Positions 11,767-29,817 of a stretch of DNA of 32,125 nucleotides are shown here, in pieces. Every line of letters begins with the position of its first letter. Position 1 is the stretch's first letter. Origin of the DNA: a virus (taxonomy: Duplodnaviria; Heunggongvirae; Uroviricota; Caudoviricetes); IMG/VR virus record IMGVR_UViG_2541047945_000009, positions 1-32,125 of that record; one strand, 5' to 3'. The notes under the pieces are model-generated. The model was not told where the DNA came from and searched no databases. It was given only the letters and a program-made list of their open reading frames with translations. Made by a program: the position numbers and the translations under genes.

Positions 11767-14025
11767 ATGAAACCAGAATACTTAAGGAAAATAGAATCAT
11801 TGCAACGTGAGGTTGATGATTTCCATCCAGTGCTAAGAGCGCTTCTACCACGTTTGCCGACTGTTACACATGTTGAATATAAGCAAGGACCATCAGAAAA
11901 AGGTGCTGATTTTGTCATAATTAAACGAGATGAGGCATTAGATGAGGAAATATATATTGGGGTTATTTGTAAGGTTGGAAAGATAATTCAGTCAAATAGT
12001 GAGGTCGAACGACAAATAGAAGAGTGTCAATTATACCCACGCTTTATTTCTTCTGGCTCTAAGAACATACATTTGAATGAAATTTGGGTTGTTACTAATT
12101 CATCAATCTCAAATAATGCTCAAGAAAAAATCTACTTAAAATTCAAATCTACAAATATAAAGTTTATAGAAGGTGAGAAAATATGTTCTTTAATCAGTAA
12201 ATATTACCCAGAGTTTTGGGATTTCGAATCCATTAATTATGAGCAATACTTAACAGATACATTGCAAACCATAAGTGATACTCCTGAAAGTTCTTTTTTT
12301 GGTAGTGTTGGCATAAATAACCTTATTGATAGATATGTAAGCAAGGAAGATCATAAAAAACGCAGGCACAGGCCGTTAAAACTGTATAGTGTTGTGAGAG
12401 CCGAGAGATTTATTTTTTTAGAGGGAACTGTTGGCTCCGGGAAAAGTACTTTGCTGAAACAGCTAATTAAAAAAATAAAAGAAGAATATTCTTACGAAAA
12501 AGACTACATCCTTCCAGTATTTTGCCAATACAAGGATGTTCTAGAAAAAAAACTCAATATTGAAAATATAATACAAAGTGTATTAAGTAAGTACAAAATA
12601 CAACATGATGGGAATATTTTATTAATTGTTGATTCGGTGGATGAAGTAAAGGAATCACTTGAGGAAAGGCAAAACAACTTCAGGGACATTGTAGAGAAAG
12701 TATCCAGGAGTGATAAAGTTCGATTACTAGTTGCTTCAAGAATTATGGACTCTCTTCAGGACTATGAAGTTATCGATCAGATGTTTGCAAGATACTCGAT
12801 AATACCACTTAGCACAGGTCAAATAATCGACTTTGTAGATAAAATCTGCAATGACATTAAAATAACAAACAAGCTTAAGAATGGTATAGAAAAAACACCA
12901 CTATTTAAATTCATTCCCAGGACTCCAGTGAGTGCTATTCTTCTAGCAAGAATACTCTCTGATGAGATTAAAGAATTACCATCTACAATGACAGAACTAT
13001 ACTCAAAATACAGTGAGATAGTATTGGGACGATGGGATACATCTAAGGGATTATTATCGCAAACAGAATATGATGTAATAAGTAATATATTAGTAGAAAT
13101 TGCGATGTTTATGATGGATAACTCTCTAAACTGCATATCAATTTCTGAAGTGCAGGACATGTTTTTAAATTATTTGGCCAAAAGAAACTTGAATGTTGAT
13201 GAGGACAAACTTTTCAAAAGACTAATTTATCGCAGTGAAGTAACAACAGTTAATGTTAGAACTAATACGTTCTCATTTCTACACAGATCATTCATGGAGT
13301 ATTTTTACGCTGAAGGACTTAGGAAGCGTGGCTTAATAGACATAAATGATAATATTTATGATATTTATTGGGCAAATAGTTATTTCTTCTATTTTGGTTT
13401 ATTAAGAGACAATGAATATCTTATTGATAAAATTAATGAACTTAAACCTAGTAACGATAAAACAAGATTTTTAAGGTTATTTTATAACGGTTCTTTTTAT
13501 TTGGCTTCATATCTAACTCCGTATAAAAAAATAGCAAGGGGAGTCCTTTTATCATATATAGATGCAGGTAAATTATATGTTGATATTCTCCATGGAAATA
13601 CCGACATCCCGCTGAAGGAGTTTTCACCAGTAGCTCTTCTTTGTATTTTTACAAAGTGTTTAAGTAACAATTACGCATATGATTTTTTCAAATCTGCCTT
13701 GGAAGACTTGTCAGTTCAAATTGAACAATATGAGGAAATTGGGGAACATATTGATTATGCACGTTTCTTCATAGCATCAACACTGAATGAGCTCGGGGAT
13801 AAATCCGCATTTGATAGCTTAGTGGAAAAAAATAAATTAGGTGTTTTGATTAATTTAGGGATAACTCACGTTACAGACGACTCAGGGCTACTAAGTACTA
13901 CGGTTGATAAGTACCTGAAAAAATTCAATAAAAAAGTACGAAGTAACCATGATATGTCTAATTATATATCTAAGTTATATGAGGAATCTACTGGTTCCTT
14001 ACGTACAAACCTACAAATTCAATAA
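11767..14025 (+). CDS. NACHT/STAND-like P-loop NTPase with N-terminal Mrr-like (PD-(D/E)xK-like) domain; candidate antiphage protein
   Basis: 752-aa ORF. Walker A GTVGSGKST (aa 220-228, nt 12424-12450); Walker B LLIVDSVDE (aa 285-293) followed by RLLVASR, the hhhhD[GAS]xDE + sensor pattern typical of NACHT. N-terminus …GADFVIIKRDEALDEEIYIGVICK… resembles an Mrr-type nuclease core. Strongly AT-rich compared with flanking genes. Confidence 0.8.
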   Translation: MKPEYLRKIESLQREVDDFHPVLRALLPRLPTVTHVEYKQGPSEKGADFVIIKRDEALDEEIYIGVICKVGKIIQSNSEVERQIEECQLYPRFISSGSKNIHLNEIWVVTNSSISNNAQEKIYLKFKSTNIKFIEGEKICSLISKYYPEFWDFESINYEQYLTDTLQTISDTPESSFFGSVGINNLIDRYVSKEDHKKRRHRPLKLYSVVRAERFIFLEGTVGSGKSTLLKQLIKKIKEEYSYEKDYILPVFCQYKDVLEKKLNIENIIQSVLSKYKIQHDGNILLIVDSVDEVKESLEERQNNFRDIVEKVSRSDKVRLLVASRIMDSLQDYEVIDQMFARYSIIPLSTGQIIDFVDKICNDIKITNKLKNGIEKTPLFKFIPRTPVSAILLARILSDEIKELPSTMTELYSKYSEIVLGRWDTSKGLLSQTEYDVISNILVEIAMFMMDNSLNCISISEVQDMFLNYLAKRNLNVDEDKLFKRLIYRSEVTTVNVRTNTFSFLHRSFMEYFYAEGLRKRGLIDINDNIYDIYWANSYFFYFGLLRDNEYLIDKINELKPSNDKTRFLRLFYNGSFYLASYLTPYKKIARGVLLSYIDAGKLYVDILHGNTDIPLKEFSPVALLCIFTKCLSNNYAYDFFKSALEDLSVQIEQYEEIGEHIDYARFFIASTLNELGDKSAFDSLVEKNKLGVLINLGITHVTDDSGLLSTTVDKYLKKFNKKVRSNHDMSNYISKLYEESTGSLRTNLQIQ

Positions 14026-14840: not shown

Positions 14841-15055
14841 TTGCATCTGCAATGCTTTTATTGAAATGTTATGATAAAAAAGAACTTTTTCATAACATTA
14901 AAATGCAATTTATCTAATCGTTTTTAATAATAAGTGTGGTATTTCTATCCTTGTACCAGCTATTTAGACTGGCCCCCTGAATCACCAGACAACCAATATC
15001 ACTTATTTAAGTGATAGTCTTAATACTAGTTTTTAGGCTAGTCATTGGAGAGCAG

Positions 15056-15421
15056 ATGATTGATGTCTTAGGACCGGAGAAACGCAGACGGCGTACCACA
15101 CAGGAAAAGATCGCAATTGTTCAGCAGAGCTTTGAACCAGGGATGACGGTCTCCCTCGTTGCCCGGCAACATGGTGTAGCAGCCAGCCAGTTATTTCTCT
15201 GGCGTAAGCAATACCAGGAAGGAAGTCTTACTGCTGTCGCCGCCGGAGAACAGGTTGTTCCTGCCTCTGAACTTGCTGCCGCCATGAAGCAGATTAAAGA
15301 ACTCCAGCGCCTGCTCGGCAAGAAAACGATGGAAAATGAACTCCTCAAAGAAGCCGTTGAATATGGACGGGCAAAAAAGTGGATAGCGCACGCGCCCTTA
15401 TTGCCCGGGGATGGGGAGTAA
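15056..15421 (+). CDS. insC: IS2 OrfA (InsC), HTH transposase subunit
   Basis: 121 aa from [24 protein letters not shown]…, matching IS2 InsC from memory. Confidence 0.9.
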
Positions 15422-16284
15422 GCTTAGTCAGCCGTTGTCTCCGGGTGTCGCGTGCGCAGTTGCACGTCATTCTCAGACGAACCGATGACTGGATGGATGG
15501 CCGCCGCAGTCGTCACACTGATGATACGGATGTGCTTCTCCGTATACACCATGTTATCGGAGAGCTGCCCACGTATGGTTATCGTCGGGTATGGGCGCTG
15601 CTTCGCAGACAGGCAGAACTTGATGGTATGCCTGCGATCAATGCCAAACGTGTTTACCGGATCATGCGCCAGAATGCGCTGTTGCTTGAGCGAAAACCTG
15701 CTGTACCGCCATCGAAACGGGCACATACAGGCAGAGTGGCTGTGAAAGAAAGTAATCAGCGATGGTGCTCTGACGGGTTCGAGTTCCGCTGTGATAACGG
15801 AGAAAAACTGCGAGTCACGTTCGCGCTGGACTGCTGTGACCGTGAGGCACTGCACTGGGCGGTCACTACGGGCGGCTTCAACAGTGAAACAGTACAGGAC
15901 GTCATGCTGGGAGCGGTGGAACGCCGCTTCGGCAACGAGCTTCCGGCGTCTCCAGTAGAGTGGCTGACGGATAATGGTTCATGCTACCGGGCTAATGAAA
16001 CACGGCAGTTTGCCCGGATGTTGGGGCTTGAACCGAAGAGCACGGCGGTGCGGAGTCCGGAGAGTAACGGCATAGCAGAGAGCTTCGTGAAAACGATAAA
16101 GCGTGACTACATCAGTGTCATGCCCAAACCAGACGGGTTAACGGCAGCAAAGAACCTTGCAGAGGCGTTCGAGCATTATAACGAATGGCATCCGCATAGT
16201 GCACTGGGTTATCGCTCGCCACGGGAATATCTACGGCAGCAAGCCAGTAATGGGTTAAGTGATAACAGGTGTCTGGAAATATAG
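15379..16284 (+). CDS. insD: IS2 OrfB (InsD), DDE transposase catalytic subunit
   Basis: 301-aa ORF overlapping insC in the -1 frame; matches IS2 InsD from memory. Confidence 0.9.
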
Positions 16285-18892: not shown

Positions 18893-19285
18893 ATGGGTTT
18901 TCGTAGCGCATCAATTCTTACGTTGATTATTAGTGGGATTATTATCGGGTGCACTGATGCTGTATCGACAAATTATCATGACCGTACATCATATTACTCC
19001 GATAAAGCAATAGAGACACAGTATGTGAGTTCATCTGAACGTACTTCTGATGTTAGTGAGGATATCCGTCTGTATGCCCATCAAATCAAGAGCGCCATCG
19101 AAAAACAGTTCGGGGATGCGAGTAAGTATTCAGGAAAAGAGTGTACACTGAGAATGCATATGGCCCCGAATGGCCTTCTACTGGAGGTTAAAAGAGAAAG
19201 TGGAGACCTCGATTTATGTCGTGAAGCGATGAATGCGATAAAGAATGCTGATATACCTGCCCCCCCCTTCGCCGGAAGTATATAA
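18893..19285 (+). CDS. Lipoprotein with TolA C-terminal domain III-like domain
   Basis: 130 aa; signal peptide with lipobox IIGC; C-terminal YAHQIKSAIEKQFGDASKYSGKECTLRMHMAPNGLLLEVKRESGDLDLCREAMNAIKNADIPAPP aligns closely with my memory of E. coli TolA domain III (YAGQIKSAIESKFYDASSYAGKTCTLRIKLAPDGMLLDIKPEGGDPALCQAALAAAKLAKIPKPP). Confidence 0.7.
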   Translation: MGFRSASILTLIISGIIIGCTDAVSTNYHDRTSYYSDKAIETQYVSSSERTSDVSEDIRLYAHQIKSAIEKQFGDASKYSGKECTLRMHMAPNGLLLEVKRESGDLDLCREAMNAIKNADIPAPPFAGSI

Positions 19286-19472: not shown

Positions 19473-19868
19473 GTGGGATTAAAGAAAATCGTTATGTTGA
19501 CTTTTTGGGTCGGTTTTGTTGCGGGATGCACACCTTTACACCCTTCAGATTGCCACAAAACTACTGCTACAGGTAGTTGCAGTTCAGGACGCTGGGATGA
19601 TCAGGATGAATGGGGGGCGCAAGCGCGGGGAATCAGAGCTGCAATTAATGCCAAACTTGATGAGCCGCATAACTGGAAAGGGAAAAAATGCAGGTTGCAT
19701 ATGGAATTCTCTCAGGATGGCACGGCGTTAAAAATATCTACCAGTAACGGTGATAAAGCCTATTGCGAAGCGATAAAGTCCGCAGCTCATAAAGCCAAAT
19801 TTCCGGCCTTCAACAATCCGGAAGTCTACAGAGATTTTCAGAAATCTGGCTTTGACATGCGAGGTTAG
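19473..19868 (+). CDS. Second lipoprotein with TolA domain III-like domain (paralog)
   Basis: 131 aa, GTG start with GAGGAG Shine-Dalgarno; lipobox VAGC; shares the K-C-L-HM…G…GD…C…A…P pattern and a C-terminal VYRDFQKSGFDMRG resembling the TolA end VYEVFKNAPLDFKP. Confidence 0.7.
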   Translation: MGLKKIVMLTFWVGFVAGCTPLHPSDCHKTTATGSCSSGRWDDQDEWGAQARGIRAAINAKLDEPHNWKGKKCRLHMEFSQDGTALKISTSNGDKAYCEAIKSAAHKAKFPAFNNPEVYRDFQKSGFDMRG

Positions 19869-22888: not shown

Positions 22889-23025
22889 TATATGGCTGAT
22901 TTATAATTGTGAGTTTAATATTATGTTGACTCACTCATTGATCCAATACCTAACTTTACCAGCAACACCTCCGCCCCCAGTAGCACTGGCTGCTGGGGTG
23001 CGTTTTATTCATAAAGCAAGGCTGT

Positions 23026-23820
23026 ATGAGCGAGAAATTAAAGATAGTCTATCGCCCATTACAAGAATTGTCACCGTATGCGCACAATGCCAGGACGCAC
23101 AGTACTGAGCAGGTGGCACAACTGGTAGAAAGTATTAAGCAATTCGGCTGGACTAATCCGGTGCTGATTGACGAAAAGGGCAAAATTATTGCGGGTCACG
23201 GTCGTGTTATGGCGGCTGAAATGCTCAAAATGGATTCTGTTCCGGTCATTGTTCTGTCTGGCCTGACGGATGAGCAGAAAAAGGCGTACCGCCTGGCAGA
23301 TAATCGCCTGCCGATGAATGCTGGCTGGGATGAAGATCTGTTGCGGATGGAGCTGTCGGACCTAATCAATGCTGATTTTGATGTCTCCCTGACAGGCTTC
23401 ATCCCGACAGAAATTGATGAACTGTTGACGGATGTTTTGCCCGGTACAGGAAATGAGGAGGAGCCGTATACGACGAAAATTGATACGCCTGTTTATGAGC
23501 CGTCGGGCGGTAAACCGGATATCAGTGAACTGTACGACGATACGAAAACTCAGGAGCTGATCAGCCGGATACGTTCGGCGTCCCTTGATCCTGATATTGA
23601 GAAATTCCTCCTGTGTGCGGCAGAACGTCACACAGTGTTTAATTTCAGCAGAATTGCGGACTATTACGCTCATGCCCCCGCTGAAATTCAGTGCCTTTTC
23701 GAGGAGTCGGCGCTGGTGATCATTGATTATCAGCAGGCTATTGAAAATGGATTTGTCCGAATGACGCAGCGCATGGTGGAGATCATGCATGGCGGGGAGG
23801 AGGAGGAGGAATATGCGTGA
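23026..23820 (+). CDS. ParB-like nuclease domain protein
   Basis: 264-aa ORF; N-terminal ParB/Srx-like region with …IIAGHGRVMAA… motif; acidic C-terminus. Common immediately upstream of terminase genes. Confidence 0.7.
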   Translation: MSEKLKIVYRPLQELSPYAHNARTHSTEQVAQLVESIKQFGWTNPVLIDEKGKIIAGHGRVMAAEMLKMDSVPVIVLSGLTDEQKKAYRLADNRLPMNAGWDEDLLRMELSDLINADFDVSLTGFIPTEIDELLTDVLPGTGNEEEPYTTKIDTPVYEPSGGKPDISELYDDTKTQELISRIRSASLDPDIEKFLLCAAERHTVFNFSRIADYYAHAPAEIQCLFEESALVIIDYQQAIENGFVRMTQRMVEIMHGGEEEEEYA

Positions 23821-24745
23821 TGATTTTTGCGCCTTTATTCTGACTCACGGGCGACCGGACAAAGTTCTGACTTACCGGACGTTGCGTCGTGCTGGCTATA
23901 CCGGGAAAATTTTTATCGTTGTTGATGATGAAGATAAGACACGGCATCAGTACATGGCTGAATTTGGTGAACAGGTGCTGGTATTTTCCAAAGCCGATAT
24001 TGCCAGTCGTTTTGACGAAGCCGATAATTTTGGTGATCGCCGCTCAATTTTTTACGCCCGTAATGCCTGTTTCGACCTGGCAAAACTGGTCGGGTGTAAA
24101 TACTTCATTCAGCTCGATGATGATTATCACGAGTTCCAGTTTCGGGTGGATCGCAACTATGACCAGGCCTATTTCCCGATAAGGAAACTGGATGCGATCC
24201 TTTCTGAAATGCTGGCGTATTACGAATCAATACCCGCGCTTTCCATCGCTATGTCGCAGGGCGGGGATTTTCTTGGTGACAATGGCGGCCATGCTTCGTG
24301 GGTGAAACGCAAGGCAATGAACAGCTTTATCTGTTCGGTTGATCGACCGTTCTCATTCATGGGGCGCATTAACGAGGATGTGAATACGTACACGAATCTC
24401 GGTCGCTGTGGTGAATTGTTTATGACGATCGGTGCTGTCCAGTTAGGGCAGAAACAGACTCAGAAAAACAGCGGCGGAATGACCGAGCTGTATCTGGATT
24501 CCGGAACCTACGTTAAAAGTTTTTACTCCGTCATGTATTCGCCGTCGTGCGTAAAAATCTCACTGATGGGTGCCAGCCATAAACGCATTCACCATCAGGT
24601 CACCTGGAACAACGCTGCAGTAAAAATCCTTCACGAAAAATACAGGAAGAAGACACCCTGCATATCAATGGGGGTGACAAATGATTCCGTATTCGAAAGT
24701 CGAGTCTCTGGCAGCGTGCCGGATGACTGCACAACAAATCGCTGA
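23813..24745 (+). CDS. Hypothetical protein with GT-A glycosyltransferase-like motifs
   Basis: About 310 aa from MRDDFCAFILTHGRPD…; N-terminal strand…IFIVVDDED and a later FIQLDDDY DxD-like motif; start overlaps the ParB-like stop (ATGCGTGA). Fold assignment is motif-level inference. Confidence 0.45.
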   Translation: MRDDFCAFILTHGRPDKVLTYRTLRRAGYTGKIFIVVDDEDKTRHQYMAEFGEQVLVFSKADIASRFDEADNFGDRRSIFYARNACFDLAKLVGCKYFIQLDDDYHEFQFRVDRNYDQAYFPIRKLDAILSEMLAYYESIPALSIAMSQGGDFLGDNGGHASWVKRKAMNSFICSVDRPFSFMGRINEDVNTYTNLGRCGELFMTIGAVQLGQKQTQKNSGGMTELYLDSGTYVKSFYSVMYSPSCVKISLMGASHKRIHHQVTWNNAAVKILHEKYRKKTPCISMGVTNDSVFESRVSGSVPDDCTTNR

Positions 24746-24932
24746 CGTTCTGGATGTTGATCTGAACCGACTGAAAGAAAATCGGGAAGCAATGACAGAT
24801 TTTTATGCGGCCATCCGTAAGGGCAGAGCGAAAGGTGAAGCCGAGTTACGAGCGGCATTGTTTAAGCTTGCCAGAAAAGGGGATGCCTTTGCTCTGCGCG
24901 AACTACTCAGGGTGGATAAAAATCAGGACTAA
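24681..24932 (+). CDS. Small hypothetical protein, possible DNA-binding
   Basis: 83-aa ORF overlapping the 3' end of the upstream gene; internal Met at MTAQQIADVL… could be the true start. Confidence 0.35.
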   Translation: MIPYSKVESLAACRMTAQQIADVLDVDLNRLKENREAMTDFYAAIRKGRAKGEAELRAALFKLARKGDAFALRELLRVDKNQD

Positions 24933-24935
24933 CTG

Positions 24936-26030
24936 ATGAGCAGACCGGACTGGGGGGCGTTGCAGCAGGAGTATATTGCTGAATACACCCGCTCCGGTAT
25001 ATCTCCGGTGGCATGGTGTGAAGCAAGGGGACTGAACTACGCAACAGCCCGTCGTTACATCAAAAAAACTCCGAAAAATGCGCAGAAAGAAATGCGCAAA
25101 ACTGCGCAAAAAAGTGCGCGAAAAAAAACTGCGCAGACTGCGCAAAGGCAGAACGGAAAATCTCAGAAAAAAAAGGCTGTATCCGATGCACTCCTGATTG
25201 AGGGGGACACGGAAGAAATTTCGTTCTGCCCCGATGAATTCGGTATTTCTGACCAGCAGGCAAAATTCGCCATGTTGGTTGCTCAGGGGAAAAAGCCGAC
25301 AGAGGCATACCGACTGGCTGGTTATGAGGGGCAAGGTGCGACAGCTAACAGCAACGCCAGCCGTATGCTTAGAAATGCCAGGGTTTATCGTGCTATCAGC
25401 TACTTCCGCAATCAGTACCAGAAACGCTATACCGCAGACCTGGATTTACTGGTGAGCCAGTTGATGGCCATTGTCCAGGCCGACCCCAATCAGTTGGCAC
25501 AATTTCGCCGTGTTAACTGCCGTTATTGCTGGGGCGAGAATCATCTCTACCAGTGGCGTGATATTGCAGAATTCGATAAGGCTGCGGCACAGGCCTCCAG
25601 AGATGGTAAACCCGAGCCGGAATATGGAGGCCTCGGCTTTGTTGATAACGCCATACCCAATCCTGATTGCCCGAAGTGCTGCGGTGAGGGAACAGGACAG
25701 CTTTATATGGCTGATACCACACTGCTTGATGGGGATGCGCGGCAATTATATGCAGGGTCAAAGCTCGGAAAATACGGTGTTGAGATCCTGCTGGAGGATA
25801 AGGCTGCCGCCCGGCGTGAATTGTTGCGTTTGCTTTCTGCTGGCGGGGCATTATGTGCAGATAAGCGGCTACAGGAACTGGAAATTGAACGGCGCAGAAT
25901 AGAGAACCAGAAGCTGCGCAAAGAGATCGAAACGGTGGAGGATAATGAACATCCCCAGCCTGTGGCGATCAATATTAATGTGGTTGATGCCAGATTAAGG
26001 AGTGATGAAGATGATCTCTCCGACGCTTAA
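24936..26030 (+). CDS. Putative terminase small subunit
   Basis: 364-aa ORF directly upstream of the large terminase; N-terminal HTH-like region, basic repeat region and CPKCCGEG zinc-ribbon-like motif. Longer than a typical small subunit. Confidence 0.5.
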   Translation: MSRPDWGALQQEYIAEYTRSGISPVAWCEARGLNYATARRYIKKTPKNAQKEMRKTAQKSARKKTAQTAQRQNGKSQKKKAVSDALLIEGDTEEISFCPDEFGISDQQAKFAMLVAQGKKPTEAYRLAGYEGQGATANSNASRMLRNARVYRAISYFRNQYQKRYTADLDLLVSQLMAIVQADPNQLAQFRRVNCRYCWGENHLYQWRDIAEFDKAAAQASRDGKPEPEYGGLGFVDNAIPNPDCPKCCGEGTGQLYMADTTLLDGDARQLYAGSKLGKYGVEILLEDKAAARRELLRLLSAGGALCADKRLQELEIERRRIENQKLRKEIETVEDNEHPQPVAININVVDARLRSDEDDLSDA

Positions 26031-27312
26031 TGTGCCTCAGGCGCGATTTCTTTCAATGCCCCATAAATTTAAAGCCTATATTGCTGGTTTTGGCTCGGGC
26101 AAAACATGGGTTGGGTGTGGCGGCATATGCAAGGGGATTTGGGAGCATCCAGGTATAAATCAGGGATATTTTGCGCCAACGTATCCCCAAATTCGCGATA
26201 TTTTTTACCCTACAGTGGAAGAAGTTGCTGCTGACTGGGGATTGAACGTAAAAATTAATGAGGGAAATAAAGAGGTTCACTTTTATTACGGACGCCAGTA
26301 TCGGGGAACCACTATCTGCAGATCGATGGAGAAGCCACAAACGATCGTCGGTTTCAAAATTGGTAATGCGCTGGTGGATGAACTGGACATTTTGCCGAAG
26401 GAAAAAGCCAGAACGGCGTGGCGCAAGATAATTGCGCGTATGCGTTATAAGATTGATGGACTTCGCAACGGTATTGACGTTACAACCACGCCGGAAGGAT
26501 TCAAATTTGTCTACGAGCAGTTTGTTAAAGCCGTGCGTGAAAAAACAGAGCTGGCCTCACTGTATGGTCTGGTGCAGGCATCTACTTTCGATAATGAAAA
26601 GAACCTGCCAGCAGATTACATTCCTTCACTTCTTGAATCATACCCTCCAGAGCTGATTAAAGCCTATCTTCTAGGACGGTTTACTAACCTGACAAGTGGT
26701 ACTGTTTACCATCAGTTTGACCGGAAACTGAATAATTGCGAAGAAGTGGAGCAGCCAGGGGAGCCGATTTATATTGGGATGGATTTTAACGTTGGAAAGA
26801 TGGCGGGAATCGTCCATGTGCTGCGTTTGGGGCTTCCATGTGCGGTAACTGAAATCATCAATGCCTACGATACGCCGGATATGATCCGCCTCATTAAAGA
26901 ACGCTTCTGGCTGTATGACGGGCATGATTACCGGAAAGTGAGGGAGATTTATATTTATCCAGATGCTTCCGGAGATTCCAGAAAATCAAGTAACGCAAGT
27001 ACGACGGATATAGCCCAGCTTAAGCAGGCAGGTTTTAACGTTGTGGTGAACAGCTCGAACCCGCCAGTAAAAGATCGCGTTAACTCAATGAATGCAATGT
27101 TCTGCAATGCCAATGGTGAGCGTCGCTATAAAGTTAATGTGAAGCGTTGTCCGGTATATGCCGAATCTCTGGAGCAACAGGTCTGGGATGATAAGGGGGA
27201 GCCTGATAAAAAATCTGGCAATGATCACCCGAATGATGCCGGAGGTTATTTCATCGTTAAGCAATTCCCTATTGTCAAACCGACCGGAAGAGTCACATCA
27301 CTTCGGATTTAA
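26002..27312 (+). CDS. Terminase large subunit
   Basis: 436-aa ORF with Walker A-like YIAGFGSGKTW near the N-terminus and acidic motifs in the C-terminal half consistent with a nuclease domain; start uncertain. Confidence 0.75.
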   Translation: MMKMISPTLNVPQARFLSMPHKFKAYIAGFGSGKTWVGCGGICKGIWEHPGINQGYFAPTYPQIRDIFYPTVEEVAADWGLNVKINEGNKEVHFYYGRQYRGTTICRSMEKPQTIVGFKIGNALVDELDILPKEKARTAWRKIIARMRYKIDGLRNGIDVTTTPEGFKFVYEQFVKAVREKTELASLYGLVQASTFDNEKNLPADYIPSLLESYPPELIKAYLLGRFTNLTSGTVYHQFDRKLNNCEEVEQPGEPIYIGMDFNVGKMAGIVHVLRLGLPCAVTEIINAYDTPDMIRLIKERFWLYDGHDYRKVREIYIYPDASGDSRKSSNASTTDIAQLKQAGFNVVVNSSNPPVKDRVNSMNAMFCNANGERRYKVNVKRCPVYAESLEQQVWDDKGEPDKKSGNDHPNDAGGYFIVKQFPIVKPTGRVTSLRI

Positions 27313-27314
27313 TT

Positions 27315-28721
27315 ATGGCTGATATATCAACACCCAACCTCGACTATAACGATATGCTGGAGGCGTGGGATATTAACGACGCATTGATGGGCGGTACGCT
27401 TGAAATGCGCAGGCAGGGGGAAAATTATCTCCCCAAATGGCCTAATGAAGATGAAGACGCTTATAAAAAACGCCTGTCTGTGGCTACGTTACTTCCTGTG
27501 TATGAAGAAAGCATCAAACAAAATATTGGGCGCATATTTGCAGAGCCGACAGTATTGAGTGAGGAAACGCCGGAAAAAATCAGGGAATATGCAGAAAATA
27601 TCGACATGGAGGGGAGCCGACTGGATGTGTGGGCGCAGCAATTTTTCAGTCTCGCATTTCAGTATGGTGTGGCACATGCGCTGGTGGACTATCCACGAAC
27701 GGATATGAACGAGATTCGGACAAAAGCCGATGAAAACGCGGCCGGTGGTCGCCCGTACGTTACGATGCTGAATCCACGCCAGGTTATTGGATGGAAATCG
27801 AAAGTTGAAAAAGGGAAAGTTGTTCTCACTGATTTGCGTATAAAAGAGGTCATCATTATTGATGGTGATGATTTCGGGCAGAAGAAGGTGGAGCAGATCC
27901 GCCATATTATGCCCCGTCGAGTTGAAATTTATCGACGTAGCGAAGGCACTAATGGCGAATCTGTCTGGACGCTTCATGAGTCATGGAATACCAGCCGTGA
28001 TGATATTCCTCTGGTAACACTGTACACGAAGAAAACAGGATTTATGCGTGGTACACCGCCATTGCTTAATCTTGGCTTGCTGAATATCAAGCACTGGCAA
28101 AGCCAGAGCGAGCAGGACAATATTCTTCATGTTGCCCGCGTTCCATTGCTGGTGGCCTACGGGCTGGACAGGAATGAAGAACTGACGGTTGGTGCATCCA
28201 CCGCTACGATTTTTGAGGACAGAACAAAAAATGGCCTCGAATATGTTGAACATAGTGGCGCAGCGATAGAATCTGGCGAAACATCACTTGAGAAGCTGGA
28301 AAATCAGATGCGTCATGCCGGCGCTAAACTTCTGCGTGCTGAAAATACATCCACCAAATCTGTTGATCAGACTAATGAAGAGCGAATGCAGGAAAACTCG
28401 CCGCTTTATACAATGGCGAACTCCCTCGAAGATGCCCTCGATAATATTCTCCAGATAATGGCGGAATGGATCGGAGAGAGTTGCGGTGGCAATGTGGATG
28501 TGCGCACTGAACTGGATGTATCTGCCCAGGTGTTTGACTCATCCTCCGCGCTGGCTGTTCAGTCATTGCGTCAGGGCGGTGATATACGTCAGATTGATGC
28601 GGTTCGGGTGTTGCAGGCGTTGAAATTTATCGATCAGGATTCCCGTCCAGAGGAAGTGATCGATGAATTAAAAAATCAGAGTGTAATGCTGATGGAAATC
28701 AATGATGCAAACCGTGAATGA
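27315..28721 (+). CDS. Portal protein
   Basis: 468-aa ORF immediately after the large terminase, with the size and position expected of a portal. Confidence 0.7.
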   Translation: MADISTPNLDYNDMLEAWDINDALMGGTLEMRRQGENYLPKWPNEDEDAYKKRLSVATLLPVYEESIKQNIGRIFAEPTVLSEETPEKIREYAENIDMEGSRLDVWAQQFFSLAFQYGVAHALVDYPRTDMNEIRTKADENAAGGRPYVTMLNPRQVIGWKSKVEKGKVVLTDLRIKEVIIIDGDDFGQKKVEQIRHIMPRRVEIYRRSEGTNGESVWTLHESWNTSRDDIPLVTLYTKKTGFMRGTPPLLNLGLLNIKHWQSQSEQDNILHVARVPLLVAYGLDRNEELTVGASTATIFEDRTKNGLEYVEHSGAAIESGETSLEKLENQMRHAGAKLLRAENTSTKSVDQTNEERMQENSPLYTMANSLEDALDNILQIMAEWIGESCGGNVDVRTELDVSAQVFDSSSALAVQSLRQGGDIRQIDAVRVLQALKFIDQDSRPEEVIDELKNQSVMLMEINDANRE

Positions 28722-29817
28722 ACGGCTGCGTGATGAATCAATTGCTCATGCAGTCTGGATATCCCGCTATAGCACTGGCGTGGCTGCCAGAATGGTGAAA
28801 ATACTGAATGACAGCGATGCGGAACTTACTGCTCGCCTGCTGATAGCACTGGACAGCCTCGATCCAGGTAGTTTTACCGTTAAGCGCCTGGAGTCACTTC
28901 TGGCGAGCGTCAGAGAGGTTAACCGCACTGCTATTAACAGCATGTTTACCAGTCTCTCCGGAGAGCTGAACGAGCTGGCAATTTATGAGGCTGGTTATCA
29001 GTTAAGTCTGTTTGATTCTATGCTACCTGATTTTGTTGCTGATGTTCACCCTCTGGTTGGTATCTCTCCTGATGCACTTTATGCCGCTGCAATGGCGCGA
29101 CCATTCCAGGGACGACTGCTCAGTGAGTGGGCCTCAGATCTTGAGGCGGATCGGCTCAGACGCATAACAAATACAGTGCGTCAGGGTTTTTTGCTGGGGG
29201 ATACCAATGAGCAGATCGCAAGAAAAATTCGGGGACATGTCAGTAAGGGATTTCAGGATGGTGCATTGCAGATGAGCCGGGCTAATGCGGCCAGCATTGC
29301 AAAAACAGCGGTTGGACATCTTGCTGCTACTGCCCGTGAGAGTTTTGCCAGCGCGAATAATGATTTGATTAAGGGTAAGCAATGGTTATCAACGCTTGAT
29401 AATCGTACTACGCCACAATGTCGAATCAGGGATCGCCTCAAATATACGCTGAATAATAAACCTGTAGGTCACAGCGTGCCTTATTTGCAGGGGCCGGGAA
29501 AAATTCATTTCTGCTGCCGCTCAACGGAAACGTTCATTCTGAAATCAGCGAAGGAACTGGGTATTGATGTTCGCGATATTTCCCCGGCTGAGCGGGCCAG
29601 CATGGATGGCGTGGTGGCCGGAGATACAACCTACAGGGAATGGTTTTTGCGTCAGCCTTACACCAGACAAAAACAGATTGTGGGGGAAAGCCGAGCAAAG
29701 CTGATTCGGGATGGTGGTATGTCGCCAGATGAATTTTACACCGATAAAGGCGAATGGCTGACGCTGAAGCAGCTCCGTGAGCGTGATGCACAGGTATTCA
29801 GAAAAGCAGGGATTTAA
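28702..29817 (+). CDS. Head morphogenesis protein (Mu F / SPP1 gp7 family-like)
   Basis: 371-aa ORF following the portal; contains the TTPQCR-type motif I associate with this family. Confidence 0.65.
   Translation: MMQTVNERLRDESIAHAVWISRYSTGVAARMVKILNDSDAELTARLLIALDSLDPGSFTVKRLESLLASVREVNRTAINSMFTSLSGELNELAIYEAGYQLSLFDSMLPDFVADVHPLVGISPDALYAAAMARPFQGRLLSEWASDLEADRLRRITNTVRQGFLLGDTNEQIARKIRGHVSKGFQDGALQMSRANAASIAKTAVGHLAATARESFASANNDLIKGKQWLSTLDNRTTPQCRIRDRLKYTLNNKPVGHSVPYLQGPGKIHFCCRSTETFILKSAKELGIDVRDISPAERASMDGVVAGDTTYREWFLRQPYTRQKQIVGESRAKLIRDGGMSPDEFYTDKGEWLTLKQLRERDAQVFRKAGI

Follow-up and report, generated by a model that had tools for sequence, protein, structure and literature searches.

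The stretch of DNA analysed here (the window) comprises the 32,125 nucleotides (nt) of the Caudoviricetes record IMGVR_UViG_2541047945_000009 and corresponds to the left two-thirds of a Rac-like lambdoid E. coli prophage. Shortly ahead of its terminase genes lie two overlapping open reading frames (ORFs), ORF1 and ORF2, which a preliminary description made from the sequence alone had taken for a ParB-like nuclease gene coupled to a gene for a GT-A-type nucleotide-sugar transferase, raising the possibility of a DNA modification or anti-restriction module. What, then, would a glycosyltransferase and a ParB-like protein do together at the head of a structural operon? We found that ORF1 and ORF2 belong to two gene families that form an obligate pair in viruses of bacteria and archaea, and we tentatively propose that they make up a late, partner-dependent glycosylation module acting most likely on phage DNA and protecting it, an explanation to which we give slightly less than an even chance.

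A TAGT-family glycosyltransferase and its obligate partner gene

The two genes, with the domains and residues on which the following analyses rely, are located as follows in the window:

23026-23820, plus strand: ORF1 (full-length YnaK), 264 amino acids (aa), ending ...GAA TAT GCG TGA
23026-23430, plus strand: ParB/Srx nucleotide-binding domain of ORF1 with a short helical extension, aa 1-135 (fold and sequence match)
23467-23502, plus strand: linker motif of ORF1, YTTKIDTPVYEP, aa 148-159, consensus YTxKIxxPxYEP (homologue alignment)
23521-23775, plus strand: helical C-terminal domain of ORF1, aa ~166-250, with invariant R201, H202, Y214, E226 and D234
23795-23820, plus strand: coupling junction, a Shine-Dalgarno-like run followed by a start/stop overlap (sequence reading)
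23813-24745, plus strand: ORF2, TAGT-family GT-A glycosyltransferase, 310 aa
23852-23854, plus strand: R14 of ORF2 (invariant column)
24116-24124, plus strand: D102-D104 of ORF2, a DxD-type site (invariant columns)
24374-24379, plus strand: (N)E188-D189 of ORF2 (invariant or nearly so; D189 invariant)
24590-24595, plus strand: H260-H261 of ORF2 (invariant or nearly so)

ORF2 matches the Pfam family TAGT (TET-associated glycosyltransferase; PF20691) over aa 8-222 with 121.6 bits (cut-off 27.5; E 5.5e-35) and phrog_842, a family named 'beta-glucosyl-HMC-alpha-glucosyltransferase', at 1.4e-103, while some of its homologues carry the RefSeq name 'GREB1-related protein'. Its AlphaFold2 model displays a GT-A fold (predicted template modelling score 0.76; core predicted local distance difference test, pLDDT, >90). 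Foldseek searches of the PDB with this model returned generic GT-A enzymes only (GalNAc-T, ThuS, COLGALT1, AvpGT, TarS, SpsA and glycogenin; E 5e-5 to 1e-3), and searches of BFVD returned TAGT-domain proteins as top matches (E 1e-25) as well as a T4-like beta-glucosyl-HMC-alpha-glucosyltransferase (E 6.5e-7). The profile searches and structure prediction that the preliminary description had suggested for the 310-aa protein hence place it in a transferase family with a GT-A fold, as it had supposed, and both motifs that it quoted are present (KIFIVVDDED at aa 32-41 and FIQLDDDY at aa 98-105). Homologue alignments showed that the key residues listed above are kept from E. coli to a haloarchaeal virus, and these residues agree with the motif set R...DDD...ED described for phage GT-A enzymes that glycosylate DNA (bioRxiv 10.1101/2023.12.21.572611). 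The final ~20 aa are specific to the E. coli type, have low confidence in the model and overlap the next ORF. A sequence search of the PDB with ORF2 gave no significant match, no NCBIfam model covers it, PADLOC gave no defence-system match for it, and its sequence contains neither a membrane segment nor a signal peptide. Judging from its sequence and predicted fold, ORF2 is very probably an active glycosyltransferase that takes its sugar from a nucleotide-sugar donor.

The association between the two genes was analysed in 374 loci from viral contigs, collected with queries anchored on distant members and annotated by profile searches of all ORFs. These loci fall into 150 TAGT clusters at <=90% identity:

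TAGT with a full-length partner: 122 clusters
TAGT with a short partner that has no ParB domain: 17 clusters
TAGT with a partner cut by the contig end: 7 clusters
TAGT locus too truncated upstream to be evaluated: 3 clusters
TAGT without a partner: 1 cluster

A partner gene adjoins the TAGT gene in 139 of the 140 evaluable clusters, and in 115 of the 128 directly adjacent pairs its stop codon and the first aligned codon of TAGT overlap. The two families are thus an obligate pair, in agreement with the earlier view of coupled genes, and each has at least about 8,000 matches (E <= 0.001) in a collection of 5.8 billion proteins. In the window itself, the overlap that had been noticed is ATGCGTGA at 23813-23820, and a GGAGG-rich run at 23795-23810, made of the codons of the acidic tail of ORF1 (GGEEEEEYA), lies immediately ahead of the ORF2 start, an arrangement that suggests translational coupling. 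We placed this start at the ATG at 23813 and not at the upstream ATG at 23789, since homologue alignments all open with MRDDFC.

The overlapping pair stands directly upstream of the terminase genes in soil metagenome phages, in Lactobacillus gasseri phage phi jlb1, in Nocardia phage NTR1 and in a Porphyromonas phage (27% identity). In Lactobacillus delbrueckii phage c5, the pair corresponds to the genes named ORF1 and ORF2 of that phage, right behind cos and directly before the terminase genes, and Haloarcula virus HHTV-2 also carries it, with terL ~3 kb downstream; the transferases of E. coli and of the haloarchaeal virus share 41-43% identity. More generally, the first large downstream ORF matches a terminase large subunit in 71-92 of 100 diverse loci, distributed over the overlapping families Terminase_6N (55 loci), Terminase_3 (36), TerL_ATPase (12) and GpA (4). 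Since four families of packaging enzymes are found at the same position, the module appears to move between phage lineages and yet to keep its place. One metagenomic viral contig (L148, 5269-6846) has a single 526-aa ORF in which a full ParB-like partner is fused to TAGT, which is either a natural fusion or the result of a lost stop codon. Altogether, it is very likely that ORF2 works with ORF1, presumably in a physical complex.

The two genes are dispensable to the phages that carry them. At >=90% identity, the pair or a remnant of it is found in 1,608 of 5,426 complete E. coli genomes and is nearly full length in 889 of them. The K-12 Rac prophage, which the preliminary description had given as reduced to fragments in this region, is indeed so: the match between MG1655 and the window stops at 23279, within ORF1, and MG1655 has lost ORF2 as well as the terminase genes. 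Since this match ends inside ORF1, the 87-aa YnaK that is left in MG1655 is a deletion stump of the 264-aa protein. In another E. coli record, NZ_CP091756.1 (L001, 20127-20384, equivalent to 23026-23283 of the window), RefSeq treats ynaK as a pseudogene cut short and places no feature in the ~530 nt that follow; the DNA there is 100% identical to the window and the 264-aa ORF is intact, so that the annotation seems to have been modelled on the K-12 stump. Deletions were also found within the c5 genus: phage LL-Ku has a chimeric ORF in which the start of the partner gene is joined to TAGT from about residue 81 (L377, 90-938), phage Ld25A has one in which it is joined to the last 45 TAGT residues (L378, 90-515), and phages phiLdb and Ld17 have split copies. 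In LL-Ku and Ld25A, the chimera is the first gene of the phage, annotated as a glucosyltransferase in one and as a ParB nuclease in the other. Since viable phages have such deletions, the pair is accessory and not a part of the packaging machine; a role as an essential packaging factor, which we had considered, is ruled out by the internal deletions of LL-Ku and Ld25A.

Architecture of the partner protein and its variants

ORF1 matches phrog_620 at 4.8e-90, and its AlphaFold2 model (mean pLDDT 82) consists of a domain at aa 1-135, a disordered stretch at aa 137-152 and a helical part at aa 165-245. When aligned to Noc/ParB, NAR (aa 21-23) corresponds to the QPR box, GHGR (aa 57-60, nt 23194-23205) to the GERR box and ADN (aa 91-93) to the ENL box: R23, R60 (the last Arg of GERR) and N93 are conserved, while the Gln of QPR is replaced by Asn21 and the Glu of GERR by His58. 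The arginine and asparagine that bind phosphate are thus among the conserved residues. These boxes make nucleotide binding by ORF1 plausible. The label 'ParB-like nuclease' used in the preliminary description found no support, as nothing indicates a nuclease in this acidic protein (pI 4.5, net charge -24), which has no recognisable DNA-binding domain and a His in place of the catalytic Glu of GERR. Searches with the N-terminal module pointed to another class of proteins: DNA methyltransferases have a counterpart of ORF1 aa 1-144 as their N-terminal module (PADLOC MTase_II, 1e-38; phrog_498, 1.9e-50), and tblastn detected this module in 496 phage records, with up to 53% identity, mostly annotated as adenine or 'modification' methylases.

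Y148, P155 and Y157 of the linker motif are invariant in 50 homologues, and no known relative of the C-terminal domain was found. A phmmer search of 1.84 billion representatives with residues 140-264 gave 1,195 clusters at 50% identity, nearly all of which place the domain at the C-terminus of a ~260-aa protein; no fusion of this domain to another enzyme was found among these representatives, the longer proteins adding ParB_N only. The 17 short partners described above have ~135-150 aa, start 15-25 residues before the YTxK...PxYxP motif, which they thus keep near their N-terminus, and extend through the helical domain; they are spread over at least seven TAGT subclusters, and their loci contain no separate ParB-domain gene. 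The 'hypothetical protein' encoded directly upstream of TAGT in 191-kb Vibrio phages is one such short partner. Since 17 clusters keep that part alone, the core adaptor of the TAGT genes is, as far as sequence comparison can tell, the linker motif with the helical C-terminal domain, and not the ParB domain. This conserved partner of the transferase had been overlooked in the preliminary description.

The loci with short partners also differ in their neighbours. A gene for a DNA polymerase III beta-like clamp lies directly behind TAGT in 10 of the 17 (e.g., L239, 7065-8195) and one for the family-A polymerase PolA lies upstream in 9 of the 17 (e.g., L145, 2474-4795), compared to none of 99 loci with full-length partners. 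Such neighbours are suggestive of a DNA context, in a pattern that traces back to about two lineages; for that reason, the idea that the beta-clamp replaces the ParB domain was kept as a lead.

Other variants concern the transferase. In two loci (L204, 5410-6855, and L232, 5461-6858), a ~185-aa P-loop protein with a Walker A motif (GxxxxGK[ST]) and a weak resemblance to zeta toxins shares its reading frame with TAGT, no stop codon separating the two, and it may alter the donor or the product; zeta toxins phosphorylate UDP-sugars. A second TAGT paralogue lies between the partner and TAGT in 6 loci, a gene for an NAD-dependent sugar-nucleotide epimerase/dehydratase is added in 17 clusters and one for a radical SAM enzyme in 9-10 clusters, and a few loci have an N6/N4 DNA methylase nearby. 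The variants with a second TAGT, an epimerase or a radical SAM enzyme argue for real sugar chemistry, and successive glycosyltransferases (GTs) and paired epimerases are subclasses that were reported for phage DNA-glycan pathways (bioRxiv 10.1101/2023.12.21.572611).

Candidate targets of the module

How could such a pair work? In the explanation that we favour, ORF1 and ORF2 would be made late, together with the packaging genes, and ORF2 would transfer a sugar from its nucleotide-sugar donor with the help of the linker motif and helical C-terminal domain of ORF1. The ParB/Srx domain, of the type that phages also fuse to DNA methyltransferases, may serve as a nucleoside-triphosphate-binding switch, and ORF1 may activate or position the basic transferase (the median pI of ORF2-type transferases is 8.75) on double-stranded DNA. 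Replicated phage DNA would then be glycosylated shortly before its encapsidation, in the manner of Mom, and would be protected from nucleases in the next host. The activation step is proposed by analogy with phage thymine dioxygenases, each of which is activated on double-stranded DNA by its own ParB-like protein (O'Toole et al. 2026, PMC13229309). We favour DNA because three features coincide: the TAGT family, a ParB/Srx domain of the methyltransferase type and a late position beside the terminase genes. DNA modification or anti-restriction, as initially suggested, is therefore plausible, with the chances for DNA as the target being about evenly balanced and those for an anti-restriction role being clearly lower, so that this role should be seen as possible but doubtful.

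Several findings weigh against this explanation. Characterised phage TAGT relatives add sugar to 5-hydroxymethyl-pyrimidines or their glucosides, and we know of no acceptor for a Leloir-type glycosyltransferase in canonical DNA. Neither the window nor the 38.7-kb Rac-like phage record (which breaks off in the tail-tip genes) yielded a TET/JBP dioxygenase, a thymidylate-synthase-like hydroxymethylase or a C5-methyltransferase, and nor did the complete c5 genome (31.8 kb; the largest unassigned early ORF has 208 aa) or the gene families that recur <=6 kb from the pair in the 150 clusters, as judged from annotation and Pfam scans of recurrent families, with no dedicated profile for phage 5mYOX dioxygenases. 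The partner is strongly acidic (family median net charge -23) and neither a helix-turn-helix (HTH) nor another recognisable DNA-binding domain was detected in the model or sequence of ORF1, which argues against a ParB-style DNA clamp, and the ParB domain itself is absent in 17 clusters. GREB1, a TAGT-type enzyme, glycosylates protein (PMC7968844). Finally, ~65% of the GT contigs of a published survey have no 5mYOX or ThyS neighbour, and its authors considered such GTs less likely to be DNA-modifying (bioRxiv 10.1101/2023.12.21.572611). The ParB-TAGT module probably accounts for many of these contigs.

As far as these sequences go, the acceptor cannot be a hydroxymethyl-pyrimidine from any recognised route. 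One could still imagine that ORF2 plays the classical role of its family, which is defined through its association with TET/JBP, and glycosylates 5-hydroxymethyl-cytosine or -uracil made by an unrecognised phage or host enzyme encoded elsewhere, considering that characterised members use such bases and that thousands of contigs have 5mYOX-like genes that escape the Pfam model (O'Toole et al. 2026, PMC13229309). Yet the acceptor enzyme is missing from all four sets of sequences just mentioned and small temperate phages replicate via host enzymes with ordinary deoxynucleoside triphosphate pools, which makes this classical role improbable. Undescribed chemistry, such as the direct glycosylation of non-hydroxymethylated DNA (e.g., on an exocyclic amine) or self-priming on a Tyr/Thr of the adaptor, is better placed, even if it also appears rather unlikely; among other GT-A enzymes, toxins glycosylate arginine.

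The main rival to a DNA target is protein glycosylation, which we consider unlikely but by some way the strongest of the other candidates. The acceptor would be the partner linker (Y148, T149, Y157), in the way that glycogenin primes itself, or else a terminase, portal or virion protein, with ORF1 acting as the substrate or adaptor. The invariant aromatic-Ser/Thr and PxYxP motif of the partner, in a region predicted to be partly disordered, survives the loss of the ParB domain, the acidic partner has no DNA-binding domain, the module heads a structural operon, canonical DNA offers no known acceptor and GREB1, again, O-GlcNAcylates Thr/Ser of protein (PMC7968844). On the other side, the 41-43% identity between the enzymes of E. 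coli and of a haloarchaeal virus points to a universal acceptor (a demand that the partner itself would also fit), the ParB domain is of the type fused to DNA methyltransferases, partners without this domain sit among replication and not structural genes, and the phage TAGT enzymes characterised so far have DNA as their target. A role in anti-defence or takeover, in which the substrate would be a host factor or a small molecule (such as a nucleotide-derived immune signal or the nucleotide bound by the ParB/Srx domain) instead of DNA or a virion protein, would fit with a dispensable module, as an accessory gene should be, with a fold that binds CTP, ATP or GTP in different proteins and that is found in small-molecule kinases such as SerK and in sulfiredoxin, and with the structural neighbour AvpGT, which glycosylates a nucleoside. 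Late expression with the terminase is, however, an odd timing against early-acting defences, the ParB domain is optional, the AvpGT match is generic for GT-A folds (TM-score about 0.46) and PADLOC gave no match for ORF2, so that this possibility ranks just below the classical role.

It is least probable, to the point of being very improbable, that the two genes are unrelated neighbours, with ORF1 being a partition or nuclease protein and ORF2 a lysogenic-conversion transferase of the envelope like Gtr or TarP. Deposited names of ORF1 ('partitioning protein', 'ParB-like nuclease'), the presence of TarS and other envelope GT-A enzymes among the fold matches and the adjacent trkG moron would all suit such a view, but it is hard to reconcile with the pairing in 139 of 140 clusters, the gene overlap and the one fusion, or with hosts that have wholly different envelopes, a haloarchaeon included. 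ORF2 also lies in a late operon and lacks a membrane segment or signal peptide, and neither an integrase nor a CI-type repressor is annotated in the c5 and LL-Ku records, whose regulators of this kind are limited to a Cro-like repressor and the anti-repressor Ant. A partition system was rejected in its own right, since no ParA is annotated in the prophage, ORF1 has no HTH domain and no convincing parS-like repeat was found: a scan for parS-like repeats and palindromes around the genes gave only short matches at chance level, the sole clear repeat being inside terS.

Genomic setting and comparison with known systems

According to ORF lists and the RefSeq/GenBank annotation of near-identical DNA, the prophage starts with the integrase, recET, kilR and sieB, followed by regulatory and replication genes, a NACHT-type NTPase gene and an IS3 element; Q-region genes and a lysis cassette then lead to the trkG moron, ORF1/ORF2 and, finally, terS, terL, the portal and the head genes. 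The module thus occupies the place just upstream of the terminase genes that had been attributed to it:

22975-23008, plus strand: terminator-like hairpin with a 10-bp stem, 7 G-C pairs and a T-run (consensus scan; putative function)
24681-24932, plus strand: small ORF, 83 aa, bridging the module to terS (phrog_309, 8.3e-23)
24936-26030, plus strand: terS (Pfam Terminase_2, Terminase_6N and Terminase_6C for terS/terL)
26002-27312, plus strand: terL (same Pfam families for terS/terL)

The hairpin is located after the trkG moron and 18 nt ahead of the ORF1 start; late transcripts would have to read through it. The 83-aa ORF, which shares 65 nt with the 3' end of ORF2, matches the central part of the small-terminase family phrog_309, and a shorter form of it is called 'hypothetical' in phage records; it may be a second DNA-recognition subunit ahead of the 364-aa TerS. 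Inside terS, 4-5 direct copies of AAA(A/C)TGCGCA(A/G)A are found within 75 nt (25074-25146, plus strand), where the small terminase has a Lys/Ala/Gln-rich repeat, and may represent pac, a site bound by TerS or simply a coding repeat.

Other genes of the window, all on the plus strand, also deserve a mention. The gene at 11767-14025, in the early region of the prophage, resembles an Avs-type antiphage gene: its 752-aa product is a STAND/NACHT NTPase that carries an NCH1 domain at its C-terminus and weakly matches an Mrr-like nuclease at its N-terminus. An IS3-family insertion with its transposase in two frames (15011-16284) lies between this gene and the DUF1367/Q-region genes, and tandem ORFs with TolA C-terminal domains (18893-19285 and 19473-19868), one of which is a tolA fragment in RefSeq, precede the lysis cassette. 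The ORF at 28702-29817 is named 'NAD+--asparagine ADP-ribosyltransferase' in a GenBank phage record, and Pfam detects only a Mu F-like minor head protein domain in it (aa 154-275), which leaves ~150 N-terminal residues without an assignment.

What is new here should be separated from what was already known, namely that ORF2 belongs to its family and that ORF1 has a ParB fold. Iyer et al. are said to have defined TAGT in 2013. ParB genes near phage GT and TET genes were noted in passing in earlier literature. In the searchable literature, we found no description of a ParB-plus-TAGT module without 5mYOX, part of which Iyer et al. 2013 may have predicted, nor of the near-universal stand-alone pair, the adaptor made of the motif and C-terminal domain or the missing acceptor enzyme. 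Our analysis thus defines an undescribed adaptor domain and corrects the 87-aa 'YnaK' of RefSeq as a stump. If the target is DNA, the module would provide a sugar modification that dispenses with hydroxymethylation, a step required in all pathways of DNA glycosylation known so far, and ParB-fold helpers would be general accessories of methyltransferases (as fusions), dioxygenases (as described in 2026) and glycosyltransferases. If the chemistry is truly undescribed, a module that is widespread in viruses of bacteria and archaea, and present in roughly one-sixth to one-third of complete E. coli genomes, would define a modification of a new kind. In practice, the module would be relevant to restriction evasion, to defences that recognise glycosylated DNA and to the sequencing and cloning of phage DNA.

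Among known systems, the beta-glucosyl-HMC-alpha-glucosyltransferase of T2/T6 and other phage TAGT enzymes share the Pfam family, the GT-A fold and the R...DDD...ED motifs with ORF2; homologues in T4-like Aeromonas phages align over ~85% of ORF2 with 23-26% identity, and loci of the ORF2 clade with two TAGT genes or an epimerase mirror known DNA-glycan pathways. The T2/T6-type enzymes receive their acceptor from a dCMP hydroxymethylase or a 5mYOX, neither of which accompanies ORF1/ORF2. Unlike ORF2, they have no dedicated, overlapping ParB-like partner gene. The ORF2 clade is, in addition, highly conserved (41-43% between E. coli and a haloarchaeal virus). More distant members of the same glycosyltransferase superfamily are GREB1 and the kinetoplastid base-J glucosyltransferase (JGT), which are eukaryotic and multidomain or very distant (JGT shares ~9% identity with phage GT-A enzymes; bioRxiv 10.1101/2023.12.21.572611) and whose acceptors are protein for GREB1 and the 5-hydroxymethyluracil made by JBP for JGT.

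On the side of ORF1, chromosomal and plasmid ParB proteins (ParABS) have the ParB/Srx fold, the P-motif arginine and the box III asparagine in common with it, whereas ORF1 has no HTH, no ParA, no parS-like repeat, a His instead of the GERR Glu and a strongly acidic character. Phage fusions of ParB_N to N6_N4_Mtase are closer, as their N-terminal module is homologous to the first ~140 aa of ORF1 (up to 53% identity); in these, the module is fused to the enzyme, whereas in ORF1 it is fused to an adaptor and the enzyme is separate, with a different chemistry. Such fusions are enriched in prophages, and the survey of ParB folds that reported this does not mention glycosyltransferases (Kaljevic et al. 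2025). The closest likeness is with the 5mYOX176/ParB176 system (PMC13229309), in which ParB176 has a nucleotide-binding domain, an unstructured linker and a C-terminal domain, with no DNA-binding domain, exactly the layout of ORF1, and in which its gene stands beside that of a DNA-modifying enzyme, near the terminase genes, as ORF1 stands beside that of its cognate enzyme. This likeness is one of described layout. The ParB domain is absent in 17 of the 150 clusters studied here. While the partner of ParB176 is a Fe/2OG 5-methylpyrimidine dioxygenase, that of ORF1 is a TAGT glycosyltransferase.

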